Positions 8,297-32,338 of a stretch of 44,620 nucleotides of DNA are shown here, one piece after another. The notes under the pieces were generated by a model. That model saw only the letters and a list, made by a program, of their open reading frames with translations. It had not been told where the DNA came from and made no database searches. The position numbers and the translations under genes are program-made. Position 1 is the stretch's first letter. Every line of letters begins with the position of its first letter. This DNA is from an uncultured delta proteobacterium (GTDB lineage Bacteria; Myxococcota_A; Polyangia; Polyangiales; Ga0077539): the NCBI GenBank assembly GCA_903860995.1, contig CAIOSS010000784.1, positions 1 through 44,620 of the forward strand, written 5' to 3'.

Positions 8297-8971
8297 CTAC
8301 GAAGAGTGGGGTGGCGTGGGGCGGCGCGACCGCCGTCGTGCTTCCCAGAGCGCGCCGACGAGCAGCGCGCCGAGGAGGACCCTGCCCACCGAGAACTGCC
8401 CGCTCCGGTCGCGCACGTACCAGGGACCCGTACCCGCCCCAGGCGCGCGGGGCGTGCCGCCGGTCCCGGGCGCGCGGGGGGTCGCACTCCTCACCAGCCC
8501 GCGGGGGGCCGCCGTGACCCCGACCGACCCGCTCCTCGCCGGCGCCGTCCGGGCCTCGGGCACGGCGGCGGCCTCGATCCATCGGACGGCCGACTCGCGG
8601 GGGCGCACCCGCGCGATCACGGCATCGAAGAGGCCGAGGGGCTTCGCCGCGGGCGTCCGGGCGTAGACCGCGAGGCCGCCCGCGCGCGTCGCCCCGGACG
8701 GTGCGGTCGCGGGATGGTGGAGCTCGAGGGTCACCACCTCGGGCTCGGACGCGCAGCGGTACTGCCCGGTGACCTGGCGCGTGGTCACGTGCGCGCTGGC
8801 GAGGCGGCAGCCGCCCGGCAACAGGTCGGGCCCCCCCAGCATCGCGCTGAAGAGCGGCTCCTGCCCGGGCGGGAGCACGGGCAGGAGCTCGTCGGGCCGC
8901 GCCGACCGGGGGGGCGGCCGGTCGCAGCCGAGCGCGAAGCCGGCGAGCAGGAGCAGGGCGGCGCGGGTCAT
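8297..8971 (-). CDS. Small lipoprotein with C-terminal hydrophobic segment and Arg-rich tail
   Basis: This is the 3' 675 nt of track ORF 8297-10519. ATG 8971 overlaps the stop (8968-8970) of the upstream membrane-protein gene as ATGA. The N-terminus MTRAALLLLAGFALGC is a good lipobox. The C-terminus reads GRVLLGALLVGALWEARRRSRR. Confidence 0.7.
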   Translation of the reverse strand: MTRAALLLLAGFALGCDRPPPRSARPDELLPVLPPGQEPLFSAMLGGPDLLPGGCRLASAHVTTRQVTGQYRCASEPEVVTLELHHPATAPSGATRAGGLAVYARTPAAKPLGLFDAVIARVRPRESAVRWIEAAAVPEARTAPARSGSVGVTAAPRGLVRSATPRAPGTGGTPRAPGAGTGPWYVRDRSGQFSVGRVLLGALLVGALWEARRRSRRPTPPHSS

Positions 8972-11333: not shown

Positions 11334-11402
11334 CGTTGAAACGTCTGAACGTCTCAGCGCCTTATCGTCTGGACGACGAAGCGTCCGAGGGTCTAGACGT
11401 CT
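11334..11402. promoter_or_regulatory. Iteron cluster 2, upstream of parA (candidate partition site/operator)
   Basis: cgttgaaacgtct at 11334-11346 is identical to 5290-5302. It is followed by gaacgtct (11347-11354), atcgtctggacga (about 11364-11376) and the AGACGTCT palindrome at 11395-11402. The cluster ends 6 nt before the proposed parA GTG. Confidence 0.65.
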
Positions 11403-11407
11403 CGGCC

Positions 11408-12100
11408 GTGATCGTTGCACTGACCGGACAGAAGGGCGGCGTCGGCAAGAGCACCCTGGCGATCTGCATCGCCGCGGAGCTGCTCGCCCGGCGCCACAAG
11501 GTGCTGCTCGTCGACGCCGATCCGCAGGGGACGATCCGCACCTGGGGCGAGGTCGCGGTCGACGCGGGGCAGCCCCTCCCGAGCATCGTCGCCATGGGCT
11601 CGACGATGCACCGGGCCGACCAGCTCCCGACGGTGCGCCTGGGCTACGACGACGTGATCATCGACTGTCCGCCGCGGCACGGGGAGATCCAGCGCTCGGC
11701 GCTCATGGTGGCCGACATGGCGATCCTGCCGTGCGGCCCCTCGTCGGCGGACGCCTGGGCGCTCGGGGCGAGCATCGACCTGGTCAACGAGGCGCGGACG
11801 CTGCGCTCCGACCTCGAGGTGCGCATCCTGATCACCCGCAAGCAGGGCCGGACGGCGCTGGGGCGGAGCGCCCGCGAGGAGCTCGAGAAGAGCGGCATCG
11901 AGCTGCTCAAGACCGAGGTCGGCTACCGGGTCGCGTTCGCCGAGGCGCTCGGCGCGGGGCAGGGGGTGACCGCGTACGCCCCCAAAGACGCTGCGGCAGA
12001 TGAGACCCGCGCGCTGGTCAGTGAGCTGCTGCTCTGGGAGAAGAATCATGGCACGCAAGAAGCCCCCGCTCAGCCTGCGAAGGCCGGGCGACGTCGTTGA
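11408..12100 (+). CDS. parA: ParA-family partition ATPase (deviant Walker A)
   Basis: Track ORF 11336-12100 starts at a TTG inside the iterons. The in-frame GTG at 11408 gives VIVALTGQKGGVGKST, with the Walker A motif at the usual distance from the N-terminus. Further ParA-like segments are LLVDADPQG and DDVIIDCPP. The start is uncertain. Confidence 0.85.
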   Translation: MIVALTGQKGGVGKSTLAICIAAELLARRHKVLLVDADPQGTIRTWGEVAVDAGQPLPSIVAMGSTMHRADQLPTVRLGYDDVIIDCPPRHGEIQRSALMVADMAILPCGPSSADAWALGASIDLVNEARTLRSDLEVRILITRKQGRTALGRSAREELEKSGIELLKTEVGYRVAFAEALGAGQGVTAYAPKDAAADETRALVSELLLWEKNHGTQEAPAQPAKAGRRR

Positions 12101-12777: not shown

Positions 12778-14481
12778 GTGCTCCGCGCGACCACGCCGCT
12801 GGGGATGGCGGAGGCCATCGAGGTGGCCTTCGGCGAGGACGGGCGGCTGGTGATCTGCGGCGCGCGCATCGGCCCGATGGTCGTCGACGCCAGCGACCAG
12901 GCCGCGCCGCGCCCCTACCCCCCGACGGTGACGACCCTCGGCGCCGCAAAGTACCGGCGCTGCTCGCACGTTACGGTAGCGGGCTCGGTGGCCTACGTGA
13001 CGTTCCGGGCCGACTCGACCATGCCCTCGTACCTCGCGGCGGTGGAGCTGTCCGCCGCCCCGGCGGTCGTGGCGGTCTACAACGCGCCGGCCGGGCGGGT
13101 GTTCGAGGCCTCCGTCGCGCGCAACGGCCTGGTGATGGTGGCGATGCACCAGGACGGCCTGGGCGTGTTCGAGCGCGCGGGCGAGGCCTTCACGGAGCGC
13201 GCGACGCTCGGCGGCCTCACCAACGCCTACGGCCTCGCGCTCGACGGCAGCACGCTCTGTGTCGCCGACGGCGAGGGGGGCCTGGCCACGGTGGACGTCA
13301 GCGACCCGGGCGCCCCGCGGGTCGTCGGCCGGGTCGCGACCGGCGGGGTTGCGCAGTCGGTGGTGGTCGACCCCTCCAACCACATGGCGTACGTGAACGT
13401 GGGGGCCGGCGGCGTCGTGATCGTCGACGTGGCGCGCCCCGAGGCGCCGGCGCTCGCCGGTCGGGTCGCGACCGGTGGGACGGTCGGGCAGCTCTCCGTG
13501 GAGAGTGGGCGGCTCTACGTGGCGGCGTGGCGCGACGTGCGGGTGTACGCCCTCGACGACCCCCGACGCCCCGCCCTCGTCGGCGTCGCCCGGCCCGCCC
13601 AGAACGACCAGCTCGTGCGGGTGATGGGCGTCGCCGCGCACGGGGATGCCGTCGCGGTCGCCAACTGGAACTACCTACAGACGTGGCGCTTCCGTCCGGG
13701 GTACGCGGCGCCATACCTCGAGACCTCGCCCGAGCCGGTGGCGCTCGGCCGCACCGCCGTCGGCGCTACTACGGATGCCTTCTTCGTCGTCGAGAACCTC
13801 GGGCGCGCCCCGCTCGCGGGCCTCACCGCGCGGAGCGATGACCCAGCGTTCGAGGTGGATCCCGCGTCCCTGACCCTCGAAGCCGGTGAGAGCCGCGAAC
13901 TGCGTGTGCGCTACCGCGCGGCCGACCTGACGCCGCGCCGCGCGACGCTCGCGCTGCAAGGCGACGGCGACGCAGCGAACGCCGTCGCGGTCGAGCTGCA
14001 CGCGAACTCCGTCCACCTCACTGTAGGCGACCGTGCGCCCGACGAGGTCGTGCAGCGCGCCGACGGCTCGGAGTGGCGCCTCGCCGACCAGCGCGGCCAC
14101 GCGGTGCTGCTCACCTACTTCAGCACGTGGTGCCCGGTCTGCGGCCTCGACCTGCCCGACGTCGAGGTGAACGTCTGGCGTCGCTACCGCGCGCGCGGCC
14201 TCGAGGTGGTCGGCGTCGACCCGCCCCTGGCCACGTTCCGTGCGCCCGACACGCTCGCCGACGTGGCCGCGTTCGTCCGCTACCTGGGCCTCACCTTCCC
14301 ACTGGGGGTGTCGACGACGTCGGTCTACGACACCCTGCGCATGGGGCGCAGCGACGAGTCCGCCCCCTTCCCGCTGACAGTGCTCGTCGACCCGGCCGGG
14401 CGCATCGCCTACCTCGGCAACACCATCAATCCGGTCGCCCTCGACGCCGCCATCGAGCGCACACTGTCGGGAGCCCCGTGA
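12778..14481 (+). CDS. LVIVD-repeat beta-propeller + Ig-like + TlpA/redoxin (WCPVC) protein; N-terminus possibly disrupted
   Basis: This is a 567-aa ORF from GTG 12778. LVIVD-like units include GGLATVDVSDPGAPRVVG, GGVVIVDVARPEAPALAG and VRVYALDDPRRPALVG. A middle beta-sandwich-like segment follows. The C-terminal thioredoxin fold reads VLLTYFSTWCPVCGLDLP. An in-frame ATG 12661 plus a short hydrophobic peptide is cut off by TAG 12727-12729 (see findings). Confidence 0.8.
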   Translation: MLRATTPLGMAEAIEVAFGEDGRLVICGARIGPMVVDASDQAAPRPYPPTVTTLGAAKYRRCSHVTVAGSVAYVTFRADSTMPSYLAAVELSAAPAVVAVYNAPAGRVFEASVARNGLVMVAMHQDGLGVFERAGEAFTERATLGGLTNAYGLALDGSTLCVADGEGGLATVDVSDPGAPRVVGRVATGGVAQSVVVDPSNHMAYVNVGAGGVVIVDVARPEAPALAGRVATGGTVGQLSVESGRLYVAAWRDVRVYALDDPRRPALVGVARPAQNDQLVRVMGVAAHGDAVAVANWNYLQTWRFRPGYAAPYLETSPEPVALGRTAVGATTDAFFVVENLGRAPLAGLTARSDDPAFEVDPASLTLEAGESRELRVRYRAADLTPRRATLALQGDGDAANAVAVELHANSVHLTVGDRAPDEVVQRADGSEWRLADQRGHAVLLTYFSTWCPVCGLDLPDVEVNVWRRYRARGLEVVGVDPPLATFRAPDTLADVAAFVRYLGLTFPLGVSTTSVYDTLRMGRSDESAPFPLTVLVDPAGRIAYLGNTINPVALDAAIERTLSGAP

Positions 14482-15359
14482 GGCGCCCGACAGGCCGCCG
14501 GGCCGCCGGGCTCCTCCTGCTCCTCGCGCTGGGGGCCGGCTGCGCGCCCGAGCCCGGCGCTCTGGCCAGCGCCCCCCCGGCGGCGGGGGACGCGCCAGCG
14601 GCCCGCTGCGCGCCCGGCATGACCTGGGTCGGGATCGTCGAGGGCCGCGTCGTCGACGAGCGCGGCGAGGCGCTCCCCGACGAGCGCGTCGGCTTGTGCG
14701 GGGCGACGTGCTTCGGCTCCAACACCCGCTCCGACGGCCGCTTCTCGGTCCACGCCGACTTCTGCTTCCCCACCTCACGGGAGTTCCCGCAAGGCGCGGT
14801 CTTCGACGTGTACGGGCTCGGCTACCGCCCGGACGTGTCCATCGGCTTCAACCCCCGCGAGCTCGCGTCCCTCGAGCACGTCTCGCTCGGCGACGTGAGG
14901 CTGCCCGGGCTCTTCGGCGCGCCGTCGGTGCCCGTGCCGGGCGCGGCCGACCCGGCGCAGCGCCTCACGCTGCCCGACGGCTTCTCCCTCTCGATCGCGC
15001 CCGACAGCCTCGCGCTGGGGTTCAACAGCATCGCGCGCGTGAGCGCGGTGCGCGTCGAGCGCGCCGACCTGCCCCCCTTCCACGGTCGCGACGACGCGGG
15101 GTTGAGCGCCTTCTACGCGCTCACCCCGTCGGGCGCCCGCTGCAGGCGGCCGGCGCCCGCCACGCTGCCGAACGACGCGAGCCTCGCGGCCGGCGCCGAG
15201 GTCGAGATCGTGATGGTGGGTGAGCCCCTGGCGGGCGACGTCCTCCCGCCCGGGTCGATCGGCGTCGTCGACCGGGGGCGCGTGACGGCCGACGGCCGGT
15301 CGATCGTCACCGACCGCGGCCTGCCCTTTCTCGGGTGGGTGGGCTACCGCGTGCCCTGA
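14478..15359 (+). CDS. Lipoprotein with CarboxypepD_reg-like beta-sandwich segment
   Basis: GTG 14478 overlaps the upstream stop as GTGA. The N-terminus RRAAGLLLLLALGAGC is a lipobox. GRVVDERGEALPDERVGLCG...SDGRFSV resembles the carboxypeptidase regulatory-like domain. Track ORF 14073-15359 is in the same frame. Confidence 0.65.
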   Translation: MRRPTGRRAAGLLLLLALGAGCAPEPGALASAPPAAGDAPAARCAPGMTWVGIVEGRVVDERGEALPDERVGLCGATCFGSNTRSDGRFSVHADFCFPTSREFPQGAVFDVYGLGYRPDVSIGFNPRELASLEHVSLGDVRLPGLFGAPSVPVPGAADPAQRLTLPDGFSLSIAPDSLALGFNSIARVSAVRVERADLPPFHGRDDAGLSAFYALTPSGARCRRPAPATLPNDASLAAGAEVEIVMVGEPLAGDVLPPGSIGVVDRGRVTADGRSIVTDRGLPFLGWVGYRVP

Positions 15360-16960
15360 GCCGGCTCAGGGCGCGCGGGCCCGCGCACCCGGTAGAGCGT
15401 CACCCGCATGACCGGGTGGTTCCGCTCGAAATCGTGGACGTTGACGTCCTTCGAGAGCCCCGAGGTGAAGAACATGAACACCTCCCGCCAGCGCGCGGTC
15501 TGCATCACGGGCTGCAGCTCGAAGCGGCCGAACACGGCGTCGTAGGGGGCGGACGCCGGCCGGCCGAGGGCCCGCTGCGCGTCGCACTCCAGGCCGCAGA
15601 AGAAGTAGACGTCGCGGCGGGCGAGGTCGATCCGGGCGGGGTCATCGATGAACGACGGCCCGCGCGGGGAGGGGGCCTCGCCCCAGTGGAGGTACCTCTC
15701 GTAGTAGGCGCGCACGCGCTCGCCCTGGCGGTTGACCGCGAGGGGGATCTCCAGCACCTGGTCGCCGGGGCGGAGGAGGTGGGCGGCGCGGGCCACCAGC
15801 CGGTACTCGTACTGGTAGTCGAGGTCCTTGCGGATGTAGCTCGCCGACAGCCACGGCATCGACAGCACGAGGGCCATCGCGGGCGCCCACATCCACGGCC
15901 ACCGGATAAGGCGCGCCGCGTGCGCGGACATGATGATCAGGGGGTAGATGAGCTGCAGGAAGTACTTGGAGTTGCCCACGACGGTCTCGGACAGGGCGAC
16001 CGAGGTGATGGCCATCGTGCCGAGGTACCAGAGCGCCACGAGGGCCATGCCCTCAGGCATCGACGCGGCGAACACCACGGTGCCCAGGGCGAGGAGGGCG
16101 AGCCCCGGCCAGGAGACCACCCACGGGTTGAAGAGCACGTTGTGTGCGGAGAAGAAGAGCTGCTTGAAGCTGTGGAGGATCTGTACCGAGTGCCGCGGGC
16201 TCAGCATCTGGGTGCTGGAGTCGAGCACCCGGATGAAGCCGAGGTTGATCGCCAGCAGCGCGGCCAGGAAGGCCCAGAGCGCCGGCTGCGCGCGGACGTC
16301 GCGGCGGTAGAGCACCGCGAAGACGTAGAGCACCGGGAAGGACAGGAAGTTCAGCGGGCGGGTGAGCAGGAACGAGGGCAGGACGAGGAGCATCACGAGC
16401 CCGGTGGGGGCCTGCGCGCGCCAGTCGCTGCGCTTCATCGTGAGGTGGAAGAGCACGAACACCAGCGCGCCTAGGAAGAGCGAGCTGATCACCGGCGCCT
16501 CGGTGGAGGAGAGCTTGATGTGCATCGGGTGGCAGGCGAGCAGCCACGCCGAGAACCAGCTCATGGCCTTCCGCCCGAAGATGAGCTCGGTGTGCAGCGC
16601 GATGAGCAGCGGCGAGAGGACTGCCAGCGCCATGTTGAGCCCGAACGCCCCGCGGTAGGGGCTGAACGCGACCCCCACGAGGTGGTCCGCCGCGACGCTC
16701 AGCAGGACGATCACCCGCGGCAGCCGCTCGATGGCCGTGAAGTGGGTGTGCTCGTAGACGACGGGGTTGTAGAAATACCAGCGGAGCCCGACGGTCACCG
16801 CCAGGAGCGCGGCGAGGTGCAGGAGGTCGCGGGGGTCGCTGACCAGGCTGCGGCGGAACTGGTCGAGGAAGATGAGGAGGGCCAGCAGGAGGGCAGCCAC
16901 CTGCGCGAAGACCCAGGCGTCGCCGTTGAGGGCCTCGACAAACCAGGATGGGTAGTACAT
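15344..16960 (-). CDS. Polytopic membrane protein, divergent relative of the HENHH family (GT-C-like topology)
   Basis: This is a 538-aa ORF with many hydrophobic segments. LRWYFYNPVVYEHTHF sits at the position of LRW....HTLIHENHHGY in the three paralogues. The C-terminal soluble part contains PGDQVLEIPL, compared with PGDRFVTLPG/PGDRFVVLTG in the paralogues. It is the last gene of the 26413->15344 operon. Its GC content is lower than the window average. Confidence 0.8.
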   Translation of the reverse strand: MYYPSWFVEALNGDAWVFAQVAALLLALLIFLDQFRRSLVSDPRDLLHLAALLAVTVGLRWYFYNPVVYEHTHFTAIERLPRVIVLLSVAADHLVGVAFSPYRGAFGLNMALAVLSPLLIALHTELIFGRKAMSWFSAWLLACHPMHIKLSSTEAPVISSLFLGALVFVLFHLTMKRSDWRAQAPTGLVMLLVLPSFLLTRPLNFLSFPVLYVFAVLYRRDVRAQPALWAFLAALLAINLGFIRVLDSSTQMLSPRHSVQILHSFKQLFFSAHNVLFNPWVVSWPGLALLALGTVVFAASMPEGMALVALWYLGTMAITSVALSETVVGNSKYFLQLIYPLIIMSAHAARLIRWPWMWAPAMALVLSMPWLSASYIRKDLDYQYEYRLVARAAHLLRPGDQVLEIPLAVNRQGERVRAYYERYLHWGEAPSPRGPSFIDDPARIDLARRDVYFFCGLECDAQRALGRPASAPYDAVFGRFELQPVMQTARWREVFMFFTSGLSKDVNVHDFERNHPVMRVTLYRVRGPARPEPAQGTR

Positions 16961-16982
16961 CGCTCCCGGCCGAACGTATCAG

Positions 16983-19900
16983 CTAGCCGAGCCCGCTCCA
17001 CTCCAGGTTGCGCTCCATGATGGTGCGCTGCGTGGCGGGGCCCGTGACCGTGTAGCCATCGTTGACGAAGGGCTTGTACCGGGGGAGGTTGAGCGCGGCG
17101 AGTTCGGCCATGCGCTCGGGGGTGGTGGGCGCCAGCCGGGCATCGAGGGCCTGGAGGAAGGGCCCCAGCACGCGGATGAGCTGCGAGACCATCTGCGGGA
17201 GGTTGTCGGCGAGCTGGTTGCGGGTCTGGTGGGTGACCCGGTCGCTGAGGTTCTGGAGCGCGGGGCTGCGCCACGTGAAGGTGTACCGGGGCGAGGTGAC
17301 GAAGCCCTGCTGCCCGGAGGAGACCGGGAGCACGGTGAAGTCGACGGGGACGTTCACCAGGGAGAACTGGTCGGCCTCGTTCACGCGCCCGAGGATGTGC
17401 GGGATGTTCACCTGGAAGCGGTTGCGGGGGATGACCTCCGGGGGCGCCTCCACGTTGGGGCCGTCGAAGGCGTTGGAGCCCGCGGCGGGGCCCTGACCCG
17501 GGAAGATGGTCTTCGCGGTCTGCAGGTAGAGCTCGGAGATCTCCGCCTTGCGGTCGTGCCCGAGGGCCGAATACAAGAACATCAACAGGTAGAGGTCGAT
17601 GTTTCCGGCCACGCAGCGGGACTGGCCCTTGGCGCGGGTGATGGTCTTGTAGAAGCGCTGGGTCGACGCCACGATCTGCTGCTTCTTCTCCTCCCATCGC
17701 AGCCCGTCGCTCTCCCACTTGCCGCCCGGGATCTCGTTGAAGGCCTGGTCTTCCAGGAACTTCGTCGCGTCGGTGAGGCGGTCGATGCCGAACTTCTCGG
17801 GGTTCTTCCCCCAGGGGGAGGTGGCGATCAGGTAGTACGAAGAGACCGAGTAGAAGTCCGTGGTGTGCGCCGTGCGCTCCAGGAACTCCATGATGCGGTC
17901 CTGCTTGGTGCGGGTCTCGTGGGGCATCCCGGCGATGAGCAGCACGTGGTTCCAGATGCCGAGCTCGTGGCTGGCCTTGAGGAGCCGCTCGATGGTCTCG
18001 GTGTTGATCCCCTTGTTGATCATGCGGAGCATGGAGTCCTCCGGGGACTCCACCCCGAAGACCAGCCGCATCGCGCCGGAGCGCCGCATCTTCTCCAGCA
18101 GGTGCTCGTCGAGCGAGCGCATGTTGCAGCAGTCCGACCAGAGGATGTCGAGGCGCTGGTCGACGAGCGCGTCGCAGAACATCTCGGCGTACTTGTAGAC
18201 CGAGTTGATCTGCGTATTGAGGAAGTGGAAGTGCTTGCAGTTGTAGGTCTCGGACAGGAACCGTAGCCCCGCCACGGTCTGCGCGAGGTCTTCGCCTTCG
18301 ATCTTCGTATAGGCGTAGGAGCAGAACCCGCACGGGGCGTTGCAGCCGCGGATGAAGATGTGCGGCAGCACCACGATCTGGTCGTTCTCGAAGCGAGAGA
18401 ACTTCAGCATCGTCTCCTTGTCGAAGTGGAACCGCTTCATGATCTGGCGGCCGGAGTACCGGAAGCGGTCGACCAGCTTCGGGTCGAACACCGGCACCGC
18501 CGCCGGGATCGTGTCGTACGCGTGCGCCCCGGCCTCCGCCGCGCTCAGGTCGGTGCGCTCGAAATCCAGGGCCTTCGAGCCGGTCGGCGCGGGCACGTGC
18601 TGCACGCCGTCGATCACGGTGCGCTGGCGCATGAGCTGCCGCGCGGCGATGACCACCGGGGCCTCCGCCTCGGCGAGCCCGCCGGCCGCGGCCATCGCGT
18701 TGGCGCCGATGTTGGTGTGCTCGGGCACGCCCTTGCGCAGCCCCGACAGCGTCAGGAGGTCGCGGTCCATGGCCGTGTCCGGGGCCGCGCGCCCGAAACA
18801 GATGGAGCCGTCCCCGGAGCGGTAGATCACCCGCGGGCCGAGCGTGCGGTTGCGCGCGTGCTCGCCGCTCCAGCTGTTGCGGAACAGCTGGACGGTGATC
18901 GCCTCGGCCTGCCCGACGAAGGCGTAGTCGATGGCCGGACACTCCTCCATGATCCGCTGGTAGATCGCGGGCTGGGTGCTGTCCGGCGAGGCCTGGAGCC
19001 CGCCGATGATGATGGTGCACTTCGGGTATCGCTCGCGGAGCGCCTTGGCGAGGCACTGCCCCACGGCGGCCAGGGCCATGACGTTCACGATGCGGTCGAG
19101 CACGGCGGAGAGGGAGATGCCGAACACGGCCTTCTCGGTGACGCCGAGCACCACGAGCAGCTTCTCGGTCTGCGGGCGCAGCGTGTCGTCGGTGCCCGCG
19201 AGGAAGCCCGCGACCAGCGCATGGTCGAAGTACTGCCGGAGGTCGAAGGCGTTCGCGTCTTCGGAGCACGCCTCGCAGACCTGCGCGTCGAAGTCCCAGT
19301 GCTCGAGGTCGCGGTGCCCGAGGCGGAAGAGGTGCCCCATCAGCGTGGGCACCCCGAGCTTCACCATCTCGTAGTCGTGCTCCCAGTTCATCTCGAGCAC
19401 ACGAAACGTCGGACTGATGAAGCCGATATTCATGGAGTCACTCCCGGACGTGAGCAGCGAAGGGCGTCGATCGACCGCAGGCAGGTTCGCCCCGAGGAGC
19501 CGGCGGACGTGGCCGTCCATGGGCTCGCCGGGGTGCCGCGCCATGCCTCGGTGGAAGAAATCACGCAGGGCCGCGCCGCCGACGACGGGGCGCAGCTCCG
19601 ACTCGCCGTGCACGGCGACGTAGCGCCGGTCGAGCTTGGTGCACACCGACGACAGCGCGCAGCCCTCGCACACCGAGGCCGACCCGCGGCGGTGGTCGGA
19701 GGCGCGGCCGTCGATGAGCACCTCGCCGTCGCGGTTGATGGAGAGGATGTTCTCGTCCGTGAGGTCGGTCGCGAAGACGGCCTCCTCGCCCAGCAGGCAG
19801 AGCGGGAAGTGCGTCAGCGTCACCATCGCCCCGCGCGCCCGCGCAACGCGCACGGCCTCGCGCACGTACCCCATGAGCTCGGTGTAGCGGGCCACCAGGG

Positions 19901-20543
19901 CGGCGTCGGACCCCTCGGCGCCTTCGAAGCAGTGCTTGAAGCGCAGCGTGGGGATGCCCTCGTCGACGAGCATCGCGGCGATGGCCGGAAGCCGCGGGGC
20001 GTTGCGCGCGGTCACCACGGTGGTCGCGCCCAGCACGGGCCGGTACTTCGCGGAGAGCTCGCGCAGGTGGCCCATCCCCCGGCGAAACGCCGCGAAGGCC
20101 CCGGGCCGGGCCATCATGGCGTCGTGCATCTCGGCGCCGTCGCCGTGGATGGAGAAGTCGATGTGGGAGAGGCCTGCGGCGAGGGCCGCCTCGGTCCACG
20201 CGCGGCTCTTGAACACGATGCCGTTGGTGTTGATGGTGATGGACTCGTACCCGAGCTCGCGGCCGCGTCGGCAGAACTCCGCGAAGCGCGGGTGCACCGT
20301 GGGCTCGCCGCCGGTGAACCCGAGGATCGTGCAGCCCTCCGCCCGGGATTCGACCATGCGCTCGAGGATCTTCTCGTCGGTCGGGTTGAGCTCGGGGCGA
20401 TTGAGGATGTCGAGCACGCAGCAGAAGGGGCACGCCGCGTTGCAGAAGGTAGTCAGGCTGATCAGCGCCACGCGCGAAGGCCGCGGCGGGGGCGCTGCGC
20501 CGAGCACCTTCAGGTGGGTTGTCCGTGAAGAGTCTGCCGACAT
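16983..20543 (-). CDS. Double radical-SAM fusion protein: SPASM/twitch-type radical SAM + B12-binding-like (class B) radical SAM + unknown 250-aa tail
   Basis: This is a 1186-aa ORF. Core 1 is C34-x3-C38-x2-C41 (FCNAACPFC) with GFTGGEPT and a downstream C292-x2-C295-x5-C301. From M371 (MNIGFISP...) a Rossmann-like segment runs (...TIIIGGLQASP). Core 2 is C734-x3-C738-x2-C741 (IRGCNAPCGFC) with FGVESPEDSMLRMINKG. I do not recognise aa 930-1186. Confidence 0.85.
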   Translation of the reverse strand: MSADSSRTTHLKVLGAAPPPRPSRVALISLTTFCNAACPFCCVLDILNRPELNPTDEKILERMVESRAEGCTILGFTGGEPTVHPRFAEFCRRGRELGYESITINTNGIVFKSRAWTEAALAAGLSHIDFSIHGDGAEMHDAMMARPGAFAAFRRGMGHLRELSAKYRPVLGATTVVTARNAPRLPAIAAMLVDEGIPTLRFKHCFEGAEGSDAALVARYTELMGYVREAVRVARARGAMVTLTHFPLCLLGEEAVFATDLTDENILSINRDGEVLIDGRASDHRRGSASVCEGCALSSVCTKLDRRYVAVHGESELRPVVGGAALRDFFHRGMARHPGEPMDGHVRRLLGANLPAVDRRPSLLTSGSDSMNIGFISPTFRVLEMNWEHDYEMVKLGVPTLMGHLFRLGHRDLEHWDFDAQVCEACSEDANAFDLRQYFDHALVAGFLAGTDDTLRPQTEKLLVVLGVTEKAVFGISLSAVLDRIVNVMALAAVGQCLAKALRERYPKCTIIIGGLQASPDSTQPAIYQRIMEECPAIDYAFVGQAEAITVQLFRNSWSGEHARNRTLGPRVIYRSGDGSICFGRAAPDTAMDRDLLTLSGLRKGVPEHTNIGANAMAAAGGLAEAEAPVVIAARQLMRQRTVIDGVQHVPAPTGSKALDFERTDLSAAEAGAHAYDTIPAAVPVFDPKLVDRFRYSGRQIMKRFHFDKETMLKFSRFENDQIVVLPHIFIRGCNAPCGFCSYAYTKIEGEDLAQTVAGLRFLSETYNCKHFHFLNTQINSVYKYAEMFCDALVDQRLDILWSDCCNMRSLDEHLLEKMRRSGAMRLVFGVESPEDSMLRMINKGINTETIERLLKASHELGIWNHVLLIAGMPHETRTKQDRIMEFLERTAHTTDFYSVSSYYLIATSPWGKNPEKFGIDRLTDATKFLEDQAFNEIPGGKWESDGLRWEEKKQQIVASTQRFYKTITRAKGQSRCVAGNIDLYLLMFLYSALGHDRKAEISELYLQTAKTIFPGQGPAAGSNAFDGPNVEAPPEVIPRNRFQVNIPHILGRVNEADQFSLVNVPVDFTVLPVSSGQQGFVTSPRYTFTWRSPALQNLSDRVTHQTRNQLADNLPQMVSQLIRVLGPFLQALDARLAPTTPERMAELAALNLPRYKPFVNDGYTVTGPATQRTIMERNLEWSGLG

Positions 20544-20701: not shown

Positions 20702-21775
20702 TTAGGCCAGCTCCACCACGCAGTCGTCGCCCACCATCAGGCTGAGGGCGCCGGCGCGGGTGCTGCCCGGCCGCACCCGCACCCGACGGCCGAGGAGCGA
20801 GTCCTCCAGGCGCGCGGTGTCCTCGACCACGCAGCCCTCCATCAGCACCGAGTGGTCGACGCCCGAGCGCAGCACCGTCACCCCGTCGCCGATGCTGGTG
20901 TAGGGGCCGATGCGCGCGTCGGTCAGCCGCGCCCCCGCGCCGATGATCACCGGGCCGCGGATGGTCGAGCGCTCCACCACGGCGCCGGCCTCGATGCGCA
21001 CCCGGCCGCTCACCCGGCTCGCGGCGTCGACGAGCCCGAGGCGCGCGGGCACCAGCCACGAGTCGAGCACGGTGGAGTTGGCCAGGAGGAGGTCGTCCTT
21101 CTTGCCGGTGTCCAGCCACCAGGAGCCGAGCACGTCGTGGTGGATGTGCTCGCCCCGCGCCAGGATGCGCGAGAGCGTGTCGGTGATCTCCAGCTCGCCG
21201 CGCGCCGACGGGGCGATCTCCGCGATGGCCGCGAACACCGACGGGCGGAACAGGTACACCCCCACCAGCGCGAGGTCGCTCGGCGGGTCGGCGGGCTTCT
21301 CGACCAGCCGGGTGATGGCCCCGTCGGCGTCGAGCACGGCCACCCCGAAGGCCCGCGGGTCGTCGACGGCCTTGAGCATCACCGAGGCGCTCCAGGCGGG
21401 CTCGGCCCGGAAGGCGTCCACCGCCGGGCGGATGGAGTCGCCGATGAGGTTGTCGCCCAGGTACATGCAGAAGTCGTCGTCGCCCAGGAAGGGCCGCGCC
21501 GTGAGCGCCGCGTGCGCCAGCCCGGCGGGGCGCTCCTGGACGATGTACGTGAGCCGGGCGCCCCAGCGGGCGCCGTCGCCCAGGGCCGCGCGCACCTCCG
21601 CGCCCGTCTCCGGCGAGATGATCACGCCGATGTCGGTGATGCCCGCGTCGACCAGCTTGTCGACGACGAAGAACAGGATCGGCCGGTTGGCCACGGGCAC
21701 CAGCTGCTTGGCGCCGGTGTACGTGATCGGCCGCAGCCGCGAGCCCGCGCCGCCCGCCAGGACGAGGCCCTTCAC
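20702..21775 (-). CDS. rmlA: Glucose-1-phosphate thymidylyltransferase, long form with C-terminal left-handed beta-helix
   Basis: GTG 21775 overlaps the rmlB stop as GTGA. The N-terminus is VKGLVLAGGAGSRLRPITYTGAKQLVPVANRPIL. Hexapeptide-like repeats occupy the last 90 aa or so. Track ORF 20702-21826 is in the same frame. Confidence 0.85.
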   Translation of the reverse strand: MKGLVLAGGAGSRLRPITYTGAKQLVPVANRPILFFVVDKLVDAGITDIGVIISPETGAEVRAALGDGARWGARLTYIVQERPAGLAHAALTARPFLGDDDFCMYLGDNLIGDSIRPAVDAFRAEPAWSASVMLKAVDDPRAFGVAVLDADGAITRLVEKPADPPSDLALVGVYLFRPSVFAAIAEIAPSARGELEITDTLSRILARGEHIHHDVLGSWWLDTGKKDDLLLANSTVLDSWLVPARLGLVDAASRVSGRVRIEAGAVVERSTIRGPVIIGAGARLTDARIGPYTSIGDGVTVLRSGVDHSVLMEGCVVEDTARLEDSLLGRRVRVRPGSTRAGALSLMVGDDCVVELA

Positions 21776-22833
21776 GCGCCGCCCCCGAGGCCGAGGCGCG
21801 CGCGGTCGTGGGCGCGGGCGTCGCACCAGCCGCGGTGCGCGAGGTACCAGCCCACGGTGGCGCGGAGGCCCGCGTCGAGCGAGTGCGCGGGCGACCAGCC
21901 GAGGGCGTCGCGGGCGCGCGCGGCGTCCACGGCGTAGCGGCGGTCGTGGCCGGGGCGGTCGCCGACGAAGCGGATGAGGGCGCGGTAGCCGCCGGGCGGG
22001 GCGCGGAGGCCCGCCGCGGGCGCGAGCTCGTCGAGCAGCGCGCAGAGCGACTCGACCAGGGCGAGGTTGGTGCGCTCGGCGCCGCCGCCCAGGGTGTAGG
22101 TGACCCCGGGGGCGCCGCGCAGGGCTGCGGCCAGGAGGGCGTCGCAGTGGTCGTCGACGTAGAGCCAGTCGCGCACGTGCTGCCCGTCGCCGTACACGGG
22201 CAGCGCGCGGTGCTCGACGGCGTTGAGGATCATCAGCGGGATGAGCTTCTCGGGGAACTGGTACGGCCCGTAGTTGTTCGAGCAGTGGGTGGTCACCACC
22301 GGGAGGCCGTAGGTGTTGGCCCAGGCCCGCGCGAGGTGGTCGCCGCCGGCCTTGGAGGCCGCGTAGGGCGAGTTGGGCGCGTGGGCCGAGCCCTCGTGGA
22401 AGCGCCCGCCGGCGCCGAGGGAGCCGAAGACCTCGTCGGTGGACACCTGCACGAAGCGGAACCCGGGCGGGGCGGCGCCGGACCCGACGTAGCGCCGGGC
22501 GGCCTCGAGCATCGCGTGCGTGCCGAGCACGTTGGTGCGAAGGAAGTCCGTCGCGTCGTCGATGGAGCGGTCGACGTGGGACTCCGCCGCGAGGTGGAGC
22601 ACGGCGTCGGGGCGGTGCTCTCGCAGCAGGGCCTCGACCAGGGCGCGGTCGCAGACGTCGCCGCGCACGAAGCGGTGCCGCGGGTGCCCGGCCACGTCGC
22701 GGAGGTTGTCGAGGCTGCCGGCGTAGGTGAGCAGGTCGAGGGTGACCACGGAGCAGGCGTCGTCGCGCAGGGCGCGGCGCACGAGGTTGGCGCCGATGAA
22801 GCCCGCGCCGCCGGTGACGAGCAGGGCGGTCAC
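21772..22833 (-). CDS. rmlB: dTDP-glucose 4,6-dehydratase
   Basis: This is the 3' 1062 nt of track ORF 21772-23373. GTG 22833 overlaps the upstream stop as GTGA. Motifs are LVTGGAGFIGANLV, HLAAESHVDRS, STDEVFG, YAASKAGGDHL and HCSNNYGPYQFPEKLIP. Confidence 0.9.
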   Translation of the reverse strand: MTALLVTGGAGFIGANLVRRALRDDACSVVTLDLLTYAGSLDNLRDVAGHPRHRFVRGDVCDRALVEALLREHRPDAVLHLAAESHVDRSIDDATDFLRTNVLGTHAMLEAARRYVGSGAAPPGFRFVQVSTDEVFGSLGAGGRFHEGSAHAPNSPYAASKAGGDHLARAWANTYGLPVVTTHCSNNYGPYQFPEKLIPLMILNAVEHRALPVYGDGQHVRDWLYVDDHCDALLAAALRGAPGVTYTLGGGAERTNLALVESLCALLDELAPAAGLRAPPGGYRALIRFVGDRPGHDRRYAVDAARARDALGWSPAHSLDAGLRATVGWYLAHRGWCDARAHDRARLGLGGGA

Positions 22834-25430
22834 GCGGGCACCACCCCGAAGGCCGCGAGCGCGCCGAGGCCCGGCGCCCGCCGCGCGAGCCGCGCCACCC
22901 GCTCGGGGCCGCGCAGCACCTCGAGGGCGCCGTCGGTCAGGCGCAGCCCGTCGCCGAGGGAGAGCACCGCCCCGAGGGCCCGCTCGAAGCCGTCGCGCAC
23001 GGCGCGGTCGTCCGTGGGCGACACGCCACCGACGACGCCGCCGTAGCGCAGCACGTCGGCGTCCTGGCGCGCCTCGGTGAGCACCACGAGGCGGGCGTGG
23101 TCGAAGAACAGCACCGGCCGCGCGAGGGCCTCCCGCAGCGCCGCCGCCGCGGCGGGCTGGGCGCGCGCCAGCAGGTCGAGCACGGCCTCGGCCTGGGCCA
23201 CCGCCCGCGGGCACCCGTACGAGCACGGGAACGACGGCAGCACGTACGCGAAGAGGTTGTTGAGCACCGGCGCGAAGGGCAGGCCCAGCCGCCGGGTGCG
23301 CGCGAGCGCGGCGTAGCGGATGGCCGTGTTGTTGGAGCGGTCGGGGAGGGCGGCGAAGGCCTCCACGCAGCACGGCGGGTACCCGAGCATGGCGCCCATC
23401 TCGGCGAGGTGCTCGCTCGGGCCGCGCGGGTCTTCGTAGATGGCGCGGGCGCGAGCCACGAGGGCGGGGTCACGGGAGAGGAAGAGGTCGACGTGGGTGC
23501 CCTCGCCGGGCGCCGCGGGGGCGCGGCCGCGCACGTCGGTGACGGCGTCATACGTGAACAGGTAATCGACCCGCGCGGCGTGGTGGTCGGCGAAGCGCGC
23601 GGCGAAGGCCTCGGCCTCGGCGCGGGGGAGGGTGAGGTAGAGCGCGGGCTTCAGGCCGTGCTCGTAGGCGAGCACCTCGAGGCGCGGGACGTCCACCCGC
23701 AGCGGGTCGGCGGGGAGCGGGGGAGGGTCCGCGGGGAGCCCGTCGGGGGCCTCGAGGCCGAGGGCGCGGAGGGCCTCGGCGGGGGTGCGGGCGTCGCGGG
23801 CCGCGGCGCTGACGCGCTGCCAGCCGGCGCGGTCGTCGGCCGGGGGCGGGCCGATGACGACGGCGGGCGAGGGGCGGGCGGGAGGGCGCGCGGGCGAGGG
23901 GGAGGGCGCGCCGTCGGCCCCGGGGGAGGTGTGGCGGATCTGCTGGAAGCGCGAGCCGAGCGAGCGGACGACGTCGCGGGCGAGGTCGGGGACGGGGTCG
24001 CCCCAGCGGTCGGGGCGGCGCTCGAGGAAGCGCACGATCTCGCGCAGCATGCGCACCTCGTCGTGGCGGCCCACCACGCGGAACATCGCGTCGTGGACGC
24101 CGTACGCCCGGTCGGTGGCGAGGTGCTGGAAGCGCCACGGGACCTCGGCCTCGTAGCCGTAGCGCCGGGCCGAGTCCATGGCCTCGTAGGGGAAGCGCTC
24201 GGCCAGCAGGCCCTCGTGCTTGGCTTTGTAGAAGAGCGCGGTGTCGGGGTAGAGCCGGAGCTTGGCGCGGGTGACCTGGCCGCGGAACTCCTGGAGCCCG
24301 ACGCGCTCGGCGGCGTCGAGGTTGAGGACGATGTCCGAGAGCTCGGTCCAGGGGTTGTAGAGGATGAACCCGAAGGCCGCGGGGGTGTCCGAGTAGCTCT
24401 TGGGGTAGCGCCGGCGGAGGCGCCGGCACTCGAGCACGGTGCGCTCGTTCTGCTCGACGGTGACGCCCTTGTTGTAGAGGTCGAGGTCCTTCTGCGAGAG
24501 GCTCTCCAGGCCCACCAGGAAGAGCAGCACCCGGTGGCCGTGGCGCTCGGCGCCCTGCCGCGCGCGCTCCATCACCGGCATCGAGCCGAGGAACCAGTCC
24601 GCCCGCGTCTCGATCAGCACCTCCATCGGGTGCGCGGCGCGCTCGCCGAGCCGGTCGATGAACTGCACCAGGTAGGGGAAGGGGTTCTGGTCGTTGAGCT
24701 GGATGCGCGCGGTCTCGGGCGCGTGATCGAGCAGGTGGTCGAGCTGCGCGAGCACCGACGCGAGCACCTCGCCGGACGGGCGCCGCGGGATGCCGCCGGA
24801 CGCGCAGAAGCTGCAGCCGCGGAGCACGACCTTCTCGTCGGGAAAGGGGACGTCGCGGAAGTGGGGGTTGTCCCGCACGCTCTGCCCGTAGGCGCACCCG
24901 GCGCTGCCGTGCACCACCGCGGGCCGGTCGGGCCGCTGGTCGCGGCCGACGCCGATGCGCACCAGGTTGTCCCGGGCGTGCGCCCGGGTGAGCTCCATCT
25001 GCGGCAGCCGGAACATCGCCTCGGTGACGGGCTCGCCGGCGGCGACGGCGCGGGCGATGGCCGCGAAGGTGTCGACCTGGTTCAGCGGGAAGGCGTGGGT
25101 GGTGCCCGGGAAGGCCACGCGCGGGTCGCCGAGGTAGATCCAGGTGACGTCCGGGAGCTGCGTCCGGAGGCGCTGGAAGACGGCCTCGCTCCACAGGCGC
25201 ACGTACGCGCAGACCCGGTAGCGACCCTGGAGCTGCGCGACGAGGGCGTCGATGGCGGAGAGGTCGTCGGCGTCGGGAGCGTCCGAGGCGGGGAGCGTCG
25301 CCTCGAAGAGCTCGTTGTGGACGCCCTGCGAGGTCAGCGCCGCGGAGAGCGAGGGGATGAGGTCGTCGTGGATGAAGTTCCGGCTCTGCGCAACCTGGAA
25401 CAGCAGGATCGCCGCGGCGGGTTCGACCAT
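22830..25430 (-). CDS. B12-binding-like / radical-SAM-like N-terminal half (non-canonical Cys spacing) fused via Pro-rich linker to a PPCC...PCx3C domain
   Basis: This is an 866-aa ORF. The N-terminal half has C179-x26-C206-x2-C209 (GCAY...LRGCSFCAS) and a TIM-barrel-like VGLESLSQKDLDLYNKG. The linker spans aa 500-580 and is rich in P and A. The C-terminal half has MLGYPPCCVEAF (C687, C688) and SFPCSYGC (C736, C740). It is homologous to ORF 31610-32338. Confidence 0.8.
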   Translation of the reverse strand: MVEPAAAILLFQVAQSRNFIHDDLIPSLSAALTSQGVHNELFEATLPASDAPDADDLSAIDALVAQLQGRYRVCAYVRLWSEAVFQRLRTQLPDVTWIYLGDPRVAFPGTTHAFPLNQVDTFAAIARAVAAGEPVTEAMFRLPQMELTRAHARDNLVRIGVGRDQRPDRPAVVHGSAGCAYGQSVRDNPHFRDVPFPDEKVVLRGCSFCASGGIPRRPSGEVLASVLAQLDHLLDHAPETARIQLNDQNPFPYLVQFIDRLGERAAHPMEVLIETRADWFLGSMPVMERARQGAERHGHRVLLFLVGLESLSQKDLDLYNKGVTVEQNERTVLECRRLRRRYPKSYSDTPAAFGFILYNPWTELSDIVLNLDAAERVGLQEFRGQVTRAKLRLYPDTALFYKAKHEGLLAERFPYEAMDSARRYGYEAEVPWRFQHLATDRAYGVHDAMFRVVGRHDEVRMLREIVRFLERRPDRWGDPVPDLARDVVRSLGSRFQQIRHTSPGADGAPSPSPARPPARPSPAVVIGPPPADDRAGWQRVSAAARDARTPAEALRALGLEAPDGLPADPPPLPADPLRVDVPRLEVLAYEHGLKPALYLTLPRAEAEAFAARFADHHAARVDYLFTYDAVTDVRGRAPAAPGEGTHVDLFLSRDPALVARARAIYEDPRGPSEHLAEMGAMLGYPPCCVEAFAALPDRSNNTAIRYAALARTRRLGLPFAPVLNNLFAYVLPSFPCSYGCPRAVAQAEAVLDLLARAQPAAAAALREALARPVLFFDHARLVVLTEARQDADVLRYGGVVGGVSPTDDRAVRDGFERALGAVLSLGDGLRLTDGALEVLRGPERVARLARRAPGLGALAAFGVVPA

Positions 25431-31609: not shown

Positions 31610-32338
31610 TCAGCCCCCGAAATCCACGCACCAGGGTGGCGCCGCGGCGTCCGCCCCGCCCGCGGTGATCGCCCCAGCCGCGTCGACCCGGAGCCCCGCG
31701 AGGCGGGCCGCCAGGGCCGCGTCCCGGGGGTCACTCGCGCCATCGCGTCGCCGCGGGGCAGCCGCCCGCGCGATGAGTGCGCGGTCGTCATCGAGGGACA
31801 GCAGCGCCAGCAGGGACTGCGCGGTCGTCGGCTGGCGGGCCGCCAGCGCCGCGCGGAGCGCCTCGGCGACGCCCACCGCGACGGGGCAGTCGTACCGGCA
31901 CGGGTAGAACGAGATGAGCTGGGCGCGCGCGGCCATCAACAGCGGGTTGATGCGCGCGTCGGCCCGCGGCGCCCATGCGCCCCGGTCGAGGCGATCGACG
32001 CCGCGATCGAGGCGCTCGAGGAAGGCCTCCACGCAGCACGGCGGAAAGCCCAGGAGACTCCCGATGGCCCGGTGGCGCGCCGCGGCATCACCCGCGCTCG
32101 CGCGCCCCGGCAGCACGGCCTCCTCGGCGTCCCGCAGGGCGCCCGCGTGCCCGGCCGATCGCGCGGCGTAGAGCACCACCTGCTCGCGCCCGCCCAGCAC
32201 CGCGGTCTGCGCCGCGCGCAGCACCACGGCCCCGCCGGACCGGAGCTGCGCCTCCACCCGCGCGGCGTCCGCCGGGTCGACGGTTCGGCGAATCGCCGGC
32301 TTCTGTCCCAGCTCGAAGGCGAGCCACTCGGCGTCCAT
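31610..32338 (-). CDS. Stand-alone PPCC...PCx3C domain protein
   Basis: This is a 242-aa ORF. LLGFPPCCVEAFLERL and SFYPCRYDCPVAVGVAEAL align with MLGYPPCCVEAFAAL and SFPCSYGCPRAVAQAEAVL of 22830-25430. It is divergent from the radical SAM gene at 32470. Confidence 0.75.
   Translation of the reverse strand: MDAEWLAFELGQKPAIRRTVDPADAARVEAQLRSGGAVVLRAAQTAVLGGREQVVLYAARSAGHAGALRDAEEAVLPGRASAGDAAARHRAIGSLLGFPPCCVEAFLERLDRGVDRLDRGAWAPRADARINPLLMAARAQLISFYPCRYDCPVAVGVAEALRAALAARQPTTAQSLLALLSLDDDRALIARAAAPRRRDGASDPRDAALAARLAGLRVDAAGAITAGGADAAAPPWCVDFGG

Follow-up and report, generated by a model that had tools for sequence, protein, structure and literature searches.

A fusion of two radical-SAM cores on one chain, encoded in a radical-SAM-dense locus of uncultured Polyangiales

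The DNA analysed here (referred to as the window) comprises positions 1–44,620 of contig CAIOSS010000784.1 (assembly GCA_903860995.1) from an uncultured delta proteobacterium of the Polyangiales, and is 44,620 nt long with a guanine-cytosine (GC) content of ca. 74%. Its minus strand carries a 1186-codon open reading frame (ORF) that forms a single uninterrupted frame and specifies a protein matched twice by the Pfam Radical_SAM model (PF04055; SAM, S-adenosylmethionine). An earlier reading, made from the letters alone (referred to as the sequence-only reading), had proposed that this ORF joins two complete radical-SAM cores, each with its own CX3CX2C motif, the first also carrying GGEP. The ORF and both CX3CX2C motifs were found exactly where it had placed them and GGEP was located as well (Table 1), and a motif scan of the translation moreover positioned CEGCALSSVC (i.e., CX2CX5C) at residues 292–301 and SDSMNIGFISP at residues 368–378. 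We refer to the part up to residue 370 as the N-half and to the part from residue 371 onwards as the C-half, holding modules A and B, respectively.

Table 1. Coordinates of the fusion gene, its parts and its neighbours (window positions unless a locus is named)
Feature	Coordinates	Strand	Remarks
Whole ORF (module A, linker, module B)	16983..20543	-	1186 aa, stop codon included
First CX3CX2C, CNAACPFC, C34/C38/C41	20421..20444	-	Putative ligands of the first SAM-cleaving [4Fe-4S] cluster
GGEP, G78–P81	20301..20312	-	SAM-binding 'GGE' motif of the A core; invariant in alignments
Radical-SAM core of module A, residues 25–250	19794..20471	-	PF04055, 69.0 bits
Putative auxiliary-cluster region, C249 + C292-x2-C295-x5-C301	19641..19799	-	Cys conservation
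Inter-module linker, ~residues 340–370	19434..19526	-	Length and sequence variable, without alignment consensus
Met371 codon, relic start of a once-separate B gene	19431..19433	-	Stand-alone homologues begin here
Rossmann-type domain, ~residues 371–600	18744..19433	-	Alternating strands and helices (AlphaFold2); Foldseek; BLASTP
Low-confidence, probably disordered insert, residues 624–677	18513..18674	-	pLDDT <50 (C-half model residues 254–307); poorly conserved
Second CX3CX2C, CNAPCGFC, C734/C738/C741	18321..18344	-	Retained in all fused and split homologues
Radical-SAM core of module B, ~residues 725–930	17754..18371	-	PF04055, 56.7 bits; FHFLNTQ, FGVESPED, NKG and IAGMPHET motifs
Helical extension after the second core, ~residues 950–1013	17505..17696	-	C-half model helices 580–643
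C-terminal domain, residues 1036–1186	16986..17438	-	Three long strands, then long helices; close family only
538-aa polytopic membrane protein	15344..16960	-	8 transmembrane-like segments; no Pfam/NCBIfam match; 22 nt downstream of the fusion
rmlA-type glucose-1-phosphate thymidylyltransferase	20702..21775	-	419.5 bits with TIGR01208 (cutoff 320); next gene upstream of the fusion
rmlB dTDP-glucose 4,6-dehydratase	21772..22833	-	434.4 bits with TIGR01181 (cutoff 365); 4-nt overlaps with rmlA and with the 866-aa gene
866-aa soluble protein, conserved partner	22830..25430	-	Rossmann-like N-terminus, divergent core, DUF483-like Cys-rich C-terminal module
242-aa DUF483-like protein, conserved partner	31610..32338	-	PF04467; PPCC ... 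PCxYxC
Third radical-SAM protein	31975..34629 (likely start 32470)	+	Two CX3CX2C motifs of its own
Three paralogous proteins of ~560 aa with 8–10 transmembrane segments	8968..10653, 26790..28469, 38690..40378	-	Mutual identity 40–60%; one weak PMT_2 (GT-C glycosyltransferase) match
Giant repeat proteins of other loci	L004:1-9864, L013:4603-9813, L012:2941-4746, L010:1948-2517, L011:248-1009	same as fusion	

Each half on its own thus carries a CX3CX2C motif and scores well above the Pfam gathering cutoff of PF04055 (29.5 bits), also when residues 1–370 or residues 701–1035 are searched alone, so that profile searches deny the radical-SAM fold to neither half. Both motifs are retained in 34 of 34 full-length homologues and are invariant in a 21-sequence alignment. 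The separate scores and the retention of the motifs indicate that the presence of two cores is beyond chance expectation, and we regard it as almost certain that the ORF encodes a genuine fusion with two intact radical-SAM cores on one chain.

Searching 5.8 billion proteins yielded these homologues as 34 full-length clusters (1147–1205 aa, 53–99% identity) that derive from JGI, ENA, Logan and NCBI assemblies, together with proteins of ~800 aa that cover residues 371–1186 only. Scanning species-representative genomes gave nine loci, each in a metagenome-assembled genome (MAG) of Polyangiales/Myxococcota, and the fusion is confined to uncultured soil myxobacteria of this order. Relatives were found in which the same parts are arranged differently. 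At locus L001 (GCA_900150995), a radical-SAM gene for 681 aa and the gene for 809 aa that follows it share a 4-nt overlap; residues 18–345 of the former product share 66% identity with the N-half, and the latter shares 59% identity with the C-half through to its C-terminus, with its Met1 aligning exactly with Met371 (MKVGFISPSF vs. MNIGFISPTF). The A and B parts are separate genes on opposite strands, near each other, at L018, and form a B-x-A array in a sister family at L021 (37–38% identity), and L020 encodes a 1502-aa protein with the opposite fusion order (i.e., Rossmann domain and B core, then A) and an additional Peptidase_M24 domain.

Since stand-alone B homologues begin exactly at the residue aligned with it, Met371 is the relic start of a once-separate gene, much as the sequence-only reading had suspected, and the variable stretch of ~30 residues that precedes it is as expected for a fusion linker. 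Of the 35 fused proteins, 22 still have Met371 and 13 have N, G, Q, H or T in its place. These arrangements indicate that two neighbouring genes with coupled translation gave rise to the fusion. Within the SGSDS codons (19434..19445, minus strand), 7 nt ahead of the internal ATG, there is a GGGAG sequence, and internal initiation at Met371 may still give a separate B protein in the fused clade.

In a neighbor-joining tree of the B region (computed without support values), the window protein falls in one large clade of exclusively fused proteins, and three further fused proteins (P0032–34) sit among split lineages; from the latter placement, fusion or fission probably happened more than once, and a single fusion event is disfavoured. 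Two seemingly split genes were set aside: the upstream frame of P0036, inside the fused clade, is open to the contig edge, making it a truncated fusion, and P0037, on a similarly short contig, is presumed to be truncated likewise. A profile search widening the B family added six further relatives, all of them more distant. Because independent fusions occurred in both orders and adjacency is conserved over a large evolutionary distance, the A and B modules are very probably coupled functionally and act in one pathway. That they carry out two sequential radical steps on one substrate, as had been proposed from the tandem cores, is something we infer from the repeated fusion and adjacency in both orders.

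The split relatives also provide an argument for the opposite view, namely that two neighbouring genes were falsely joined here by a missed stop or frameshift near nt 19430–19500 or by a chimeric contig, since the 4-nt stop/start overlap of split relatives means that a single-base error could produce a false fusion, and an ATG with GGGAG in front of it lies at the junction. Nevertheless, third-position GC amounts to 0.82–1.00 in one and the same frame for every 150-nt block of the ORF, junction included, and the fusion recurs across the 34 clusters, obtained from independent samples and pipelines at identities down to 53%, and in seven independent MAGs. Moreover, the 13 fused proteins in which the junction Met is substituted have no internal start available, and the apparent split P0036 (67% identity) is itself a fused gene cut by a contig end. 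No missed stop or frameshift is indicated by these data, and an assembly or frameshift artefact, to which we assign a minute chance, is effectively refuted.

Module A (residues 1 to ~345) bears a core that by sequence comparison belongs to the SPASM/twitch supergroup and is BlsE- and Tes-like. The best NCBIfam match of the N-half is HxsC4 (E 1.7e-27, residues 28–250), and further matches are HxsC, BlsE, W-cofactor maturase, MoaA, NirJ and PqqE, all far below their cutoffs. Among solved structures, the single N-half sequence matches BlsE (E 1.9e-13), and a 17-member profile of the A family finds Tes (5.9e-25) and BlsE (8.8e-25), with weaker matches to SkfB, PqqE, MoaA, viperins, anSME and DesII; these profile alignments end near residue 200–227. 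Among A-type relatives with identities as low as 23%, P247, C249, G252, C292, C301 and Y308 do not vary, and C295 is missing from a single lineage. The SPASM signature comprises seven cysteines (CX9-15GX4C ... CX2CX5CX3C ... C) and two auxiliary clusters, and a twitch is a truncated SPASM-like C-terminal extension that ligates one auxiliary [4Fe-4S] cluster. The CX2CX5C of the N-half lacks the CX3C continuation and PF13186 gives no match at E values up to 1, leaving it outside SPASM (PF13186 / TIGR04085). Since four conserved cysteines suffice for one cluster and the seven-Cys signature is absent, we call module A twitch-like, with C249, C292, C295 and C301 most likely holding one auxiliary [4Fe-4S] cluster; the earlier proposal of a SPASM or twitch ending therefore survives in its twitch-like form and not as a full SPASM domain.

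Module B (residues 371–1186) has the layout of class-B radical-SAM enzymes, i.e., a Rossmann domain followed by the core. An AlphaFold2 model of the C-half, built from a 25-sequence alignment (mean predicted local distance difference test score (pLDDT) of 78.8, predicted template-modelling score of 0.74), shows an alternating strand-helix domain, a disordered stretch, the radical-SAM core, a helical extension and a final domain, in that order. Its top Foldseek matches in the PDB are TsrM (5.5e-14), OxsB, AprD4, MgmA/QCMT and TokK, with E values from 5e-14 to 3e-12 over 650–740 aligned columns that cover both the Rossmann domain and the core. For residues 709–927, the best NCBIfam matches are the P-methyltransferase-type PhpK, rSAM_ocin_1, ApyD, HpnJ and BchE (E 1e-14 to 2e-19), all with scores 5–10 times under the family cutoffs. 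Within the Rossmann domain, residues 474–578 align with residues 79–183 of a protein from L021 (L021:2538-4130; BLASTP E 8e-9) in which the B12-binding model PF02310 spans residues 31–161, with IIIGGLQASP facing IVAGGEHPTA and AIDYAFVGQAEA facing AIDACVVGEGEE. This alignment suggests that the Rossmann domain is homologous to B12-binding domains and has lost the usual motif residues. The class-B-like Rossmann segment surmised by the sequence-only reading is in this way recovered both by structure prediction, with matches to solved radical-SAM structures across Rossmann domain and core, and by the link to a PF02310-bearing protein.

Whether module B uses cobalamin is, on the sequence comparisons, an evenly balanced question. 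A cobalamin-independent module of the AprD4 type (e.g., a dehydratase or an enzyme of rearrangement), whose Rossmann domain binds the substrate or another ligand, is a serious possibility at somewhat below even odds: AprD4 is the only significant sequence match of the C-half among solved structures (E 1e-4 with the single sequence, 1.5e-9 with a profile), has the highest target-normalised template-modelling (TM) score in Foldseek (0.63–0.64), and itself has a Rossmann-related domain yet binds no cobalamin (review, PMC12931638). PF02310 moreover gives no match to the Rossmann region, in which GGxHPT has become GGLQASP and GEGE has become GQAE, and no cobalamin riboswitch was found in the window. 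Against such a module, the best Foldseek E values belong to the cobalamin-bound TsrM and OxsB, and the Rossmann region, a homologue of a genuine PF02310-type domain, keeps its GG and is very strongly conserved within the family. Furthermore, class-B enzymes need no conserved His ligand to bind cobalamin (PMC13331322), so that no sequence motif is decisive; nor is the fold by itself, as AprD4 has a related domain that carries no cobalamin (PMC12931638). A more radical simplification would leave only one core catalytic and make the other a degenerate, structural or regulatory 'pseudo-radical-SAM' domain, with a single radical step. A second, weakly similar A-type copy in P0052 (24% identity), which illustrates that degenerate duplicates of domains occur in the family, a pseudo-SAM/SPASM family among the weak NCBIfam matches of the N-half, and the non-canonical Cys spacing of the 866-aa partner (see below) could be read in this sense. 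However, apart from the CX3CX2C motifs shared by all homologues and the Pfam scores of the two halves, GGEP in the A core and FGVE, NKG and GMPHET in the B core are invariant, and both halves survive as separate full-length genes in split lineages, which makes a single working core improbable.

The sequence-only reading had left the last ~250 aa of the protein unrecognised, and this holds for part of them. Distant B-type relatives, retrieved in an exhaustive HMMER search, match up to about residue 1010, so that residues ~930–1015 are a helical extension of the wider family, and residues 1036–1186 are confined to close relatives. Modelled alone, the latter reach a pLDDT of 86.3 and have no fold match in the PDB (best Foldseek E 0.16, TM score at most 0.2) and no match in Pfam; they are predicted with confidence to form a lineage-specific domain of ~150 aa. 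Its strand-strand-strand-helix order raised an RRE/PqqD-like peptide-binding domain (RRE, recognition element of RiPPs, i.e., of ribosomally made peptides with post-translational modifications) as a candidate, which was rejected on these same Foldseek values.

The established precedent for two radical-SAM domains serving one product is FbiC, the F0 synthase, which equals CofG plus CofH (PMC11917521). Like the protein described here, FbiC has two complete radical-SAM domains that are fused in some lineages and separate genes in others, and each of these domains produces a separate 5'-deoxyadenosyl radical towards a common product (PMC11917521). Beyond membership of the superfamily, however, the two proteins show no sequence relationship, and FbiC consists of two similar cores outside class B, in contrast to the present combination of a twitch-like module, a class-B module and a novel C-terminal domain. 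BlsE, the cytosylglucuronate decarboxylase (PDB 7VOB/7VOC) acting on a sugar-nucleoside substrate, is the best full-core sequence match of the N-half among solved structures (residues ~12–197), but the alignment stops before the auxiliary Cys region, the score with TIGR04466 is 53.7 against a cutoff of 400, and a blasticidin-type context is absent. AprD4, the radical-SAM 1,2-diol dehydratase of apramycin biosynthesis (PDB 6FD2) with a carbohydrate substrate, shares with the C-half a Rossmann-related N-terminal domain followed by the core, but the identity is ~13–14%, its 457 aa lack the insert, the helical extension and the C-terminal domain, and no AprD3-type partner was identified beside the fusion.

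The same N-terminal Rossmann domain and core are found in the class-B enzymes TsrM, OxsB, TokK and MgmA/QCMT and in PhpK, rSAM_ocin_1, HpnJ and BchE, which also have the core motifs RGC...C..C, gvES, NKG and G.PhET in common with the C-half. Next to its missing PF02310 match and altered GGxHPT and GEGE motifs, the C-half differs from them in a disordered insert of ~55 aa, a unique C-terminal extension of ~250 aa and an N-terminus fused to another radical-SAM enzyme, and it stays far below the NCBIfam thresholds of the PhpK family TIGR04479 (69.4 vs. 600), the RiPP C-methyltransferase family TIGR03975 (66.8 vs. 281.85), the HpnJ family TIGR03471 (60.2 vs. 577.6) and the BchE family TIGR02026 (54 vs. 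481.35). HxsC works as one member of a radical-SAM pair, and HxsC4 and HxsC are the best NCBIfam matches of the N-half (E 1.7e-27 and 5.9e-16, residues 26–254). Their scores nonetheless fall short of the cutoffs (96.5 vs. 500 and 58.2 vs. 267.9), and none of HxsA repeat protein, HxsB and HxsD was seen in the window or the other loci. Finally, the tetraether synthase Tes (GDGT-MAS, PDB 7TOL) is the top PDB match of the A-family profile, but this match is limited to the first ~110 core residues, the score with NF045702 is 45 against a cutoff of 450, and there is no archaeal lipid context.

Tandem cores had been called uncommon at the outset, which holds among characterised enzymes, where FbiC is the example, and not among the protein's own relatives, since 48 of 158 representative relatives carry two or more radical-SAM cores. 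The orders encountered are A-A, A-A-A, B-B, B-B-B, B-B-B-B, B-A, A-B-B and, in one protein of 2331 aa, A-B-B-B-B. Metagenomic relatives such as P0073, P0087, P0094, P0102, P0126 and others have three to five cores per chain. Literature searches on multi-core radical-SAM proteins returned FbiC alone and no description of a tendency of cores to concatenate. The architecture is accordingly unusual and not unique, and the protein represents an uncharacterised fusion family inside the known radical-SAM world and not a new kind of system.

The fusion gene is part of a run of minus-strand genes, all read in the same direction and separated by short gaps or overlapping by 4 nt, namely those for a PMT_2-like protein with 10 transmembrane segments, a 325-aa secreted protein and the 866-aa protein, then rmlB and rmlA, the fusion (after a gap of 158 nt) and the 538-aa protein with 8 transmembrane segments (after 22 nt). 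Clustering of neighbours across 15 loci identified the 866-aa family as the most constant companion, present at 11 loci (the window, L004, L010, L012, L013, L014, L016, L002, L008, L024 and the P0019 contig). Its members have an invariant G-C179 ... C206-x-F-C209 (spacing CX26CX2C), and profile alignment to the second core of the fusion (hhalign E 1.7e-5, probability 79%) places CSFC onto CGFC and runs through NKG. Judging by this alignment, the 866-aa protein resembles a radical-SAM protein of divergent type, possibly a non-canonical radical-SAM enzyme. A family of ~280-aa proteins, usually encoded next to it, has the same C-terminal Cys-rich module (PPCC ... PCxYxC), and all six members of that family match PF04467 (DUF483; best E 5.3e-6). 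The DUF483-like gene is directly beside the gene of the 866-aa family at L004, L010, L012 and L013, and one small ORF away from it at L014; literature searches on DUF483 turned up unrelated DUF numbers only.

Altogether, five radical-SAM-type cores lie within a stretch of ~18 kb in the window. The third radical-SAM protein (32470..34629) has the motifs CDLRCAWC and CNISCGFC, 467 residues apart, of which Pfam detects the second core only, and a homologue with the same two motifs (46% identity) adjoins the B-x-A array at L021; further homologues occur at L012 and, in fused form, at L002. Other loci harbour even more radical-SAM genes, as does the very dense L024 (23.5 kb in all), where ~8 of them within 23 kb surround the fusion orthologue, along with a PhyH dioxygenase, a Rieske oxygenase and a fusion of radical-SAM and GFO_IDH_MocA domains.

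The window is also unusually rich in large polytopic membrane proteins, i.e., the three paralogues of ~560 aa and the 538-aa protein. The latter shows no homology to membrane neighbours in other loci, and a conserved GT-C-like membrane partner was rejected as a candidate, as the 538-aa protein, the ~530-aa proteins with 8–9 transmembrane segments at L004/L010/L012 and the PMT_2-like proteins of the window show no detectable homology to one another (hhalign probability at most 2%). GC falls to 67–70% across the fusion and the membrane gene (window positions 16000..20000), with third-position GC still at ~0.95; this dip stems from the amino-acid composition, which lowers GC at the first and second codon positions, and not from foreign codon usage. 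A tyrosine integrase (4050..5279, plus strand) and a ParA-like ATPase (11336..12100, plus strand) are 86% and 89% identical to genes at L002 that neighbour a stand-alone B-type gene and two large radical-SAM genes with multiple domains, and this shared pair hints at a mobile or island-like element. Neither a tRNA next to the integrase nor RNA elements of other kinds were found in the window. Four paralogous FG-GAP/ASPIC (UnbV) repeat proteins are encoded at 1103..3013 (plus strand) and at 5360..7369, 40407..42347 and 42379..44430 (minus strand), with homologues also flanking the enzyme at L001 and L006. An unusual combination of LVIVD repeats, an Ig-like domain and a C-terminal AhpC/TSA (redoxin) domain makes up a 567-aa protein (12778..14481, plus strand). 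At five other loci, giant secreted RCC1-like and myxobacterial Cys-rich repeat proteins (1736 aa to at least 6308 aa) are encoded directly upstream of the fusion on the same strand. These were considered as substrates and rejected, being typical secreted myxobacterial proteins that are absent from the window and probably reflect lineage synteny.

As to the substrate, our leading guess, a tentative one that we would hold at rather less than even odds, is a carbohydrate, i.e., an intermediate derived from a deoxythymidine diphosphate (dTDP)-linked 6-deoxyhexose or another sugar- or cyclitol-like compound. It builds on rmlB and rmlA, both above equivalog cutoffs and directly upstream on the same strand, and on the epimerases of the short-chain dehydrogenase/reductase (SDR) type and the three PMT_2-like (GT-C-like) membrane proteins of the window. 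Other loci add two epimerase/dehydratases and a deacetylase of carbohydrate esterase family 4 (L013), the protein combining radical-SAM and GFO_IDH_MocA domains (L013, L014, L024 and the P0019 contig), and glycosyltransferase family 2 (GT2) and GDSL genes (L002 and L021), and BlsE and AprD4, the best sequence matches of the two halves among solved structures, both act on sugars. Peptide or protein maturation of the RiPP type, with module A cross-linking or epimerising and module B acting as a B12-dependent C-methyltransferase on a peptide, would draw on the HxsC4/HxsC, PqqE, SkfB and StsB-type maturases among the matches of the N-half, the RiPP C-methyltransferase families TIGR03975 and ApyD among those of the C-half, the protein glutamine methylase MgmA among the fold matches, the Peptidase_M24 domain of the relative P0206, and the giant Cys-rich repeat proteins upstream at five loci. 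We nevertheless consider it unlikely, as no conserved small precursor ORF adjoins the enzyme across the loci, Pfam reveals no RRE/PqqD-like domain, there is no SPASM match, the C-terminal domain has no PDB fold match, His-Xaa-Ser system partners are missing, all named RiPP families remain far below their cutoffs, and the giant proteins are of a common secreted type that the window locus lacks. Lipid or isoprenoid modification (Tes-, HpnJ- or ladderane-type chemistry) is less plausible still and, in our estimate, improbable: Tes heads the PDB matches of the A-family profile, HpnJ and the B12 radical-SAM family of ladderane clusters are among the NCBIfam matches of the C-half, HpnA-like SDRs are encoded nearby and L024 has its PhyH dioxygenase, but these matches span the generic core only at scores far below family cutoffs, none of the loci showed a squalene/hopene cyclase or genes for fatty acids or ether lipids, and the fusion protein is soluble, lacking any convincing membrane anchor. 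The remaining probability falls to some other kind of substrate.

Overall, the best explanation is a fusion of two different radical-SAM enzymes acting in one Polyangiales pathway, to which we assign a probability of roughly 60%. Each core would reductively cleave its own SAM at its own [4Fe-4S] cluster, yielding a 5'-deoxyadenosyl radical. The step of module A, assisted by its auxiliary cluster, would be of the oxidation, decarboxylation, epimerisation or coupling type. Module B would catalyse a methylation or rearrangement that depends on cobalamin, or else a cobalamin-independent transformation of the AprD4 kind, its substrate site being shaped by the Rossmann domain and the unique C-terminal domain. 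The two modules would thereby perform consecutive steps of one pathway, and the fusion would hold them close together at a 1:1 ratio, which may favour the hand-over of an intermediate. The protein presumably works with the divergent 866-aa radical-SAM-like protein, the DUF483-like protein and further radical-SAM proteins, in a pathway that would be confined to the Polyangiales.

Several points weigh against parts of this explanation. No NCBIfam or Pfam family model assigns a function, every named family lying far below its cutoff, and a scan for promoters and terminators gave no signal that clarifies the operon structure. The evidence for the putative auxiliary cluster of module A consists of its conserved cysteines, and for module B the lack of a PF02310 match, the substituted GGxHPT and GEGE motifs (with GG retained) and, by analogy, the absence of cobalamin from AprD4 (PMC12931638), which leads its sequence matches to solved structures and ranks among its top fold matches, speak against a cobalamin enzyme. 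Furthermore, the adjacency to RmlA and RmlB is confined to the window, as L004, L010 and L012 (82–86% identity) have other neighbours. Myxobacterial genomes are rich in sugar genes, so that some co-occurrence of such genes with the fusion is expected by chance.

With these reservations, the stable fusion serves as a natural 'Rosetta stone', indicating that two chemistries belong to one pathway, and this signal is strong because related lineages show the same modules fused in either order (A-B or B-A), side by side, or apart. It also brings two radical steps, three predicted Fe-S clusters and possibly cobalamin within reach of joint study, all in one protein that can be expressed. Work on radical-SAM enzymes usually addresses single cores, and myxobacteria are known for natural products. 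The finding flags radical-SAM-rich gene clusters in uncultured myxobacteria and points to an apparently undescribed tendency of A and B module types to concatenate, up to five cores. At its most far-reaching, and as a speculation that we would back at slightly worse than even odds, the locus may belong to an undescribed radical-SAM-dense Polyangiales pathway towards a new, heavily radical-tailored and probably carbohydrate-derived product, with a conserved non-canonical radical-SAM-like partner (CX26CX2C and DUF483), a C-terminal domain of new fold, and an unrecognised 'poly-radical-SAM' class (up to five cores, 2331 aa) acting in series like an assembly line. The importance of the fusion family would grow if the product of the pathway, or this assembly-line idea of poly-core proteins, were established.

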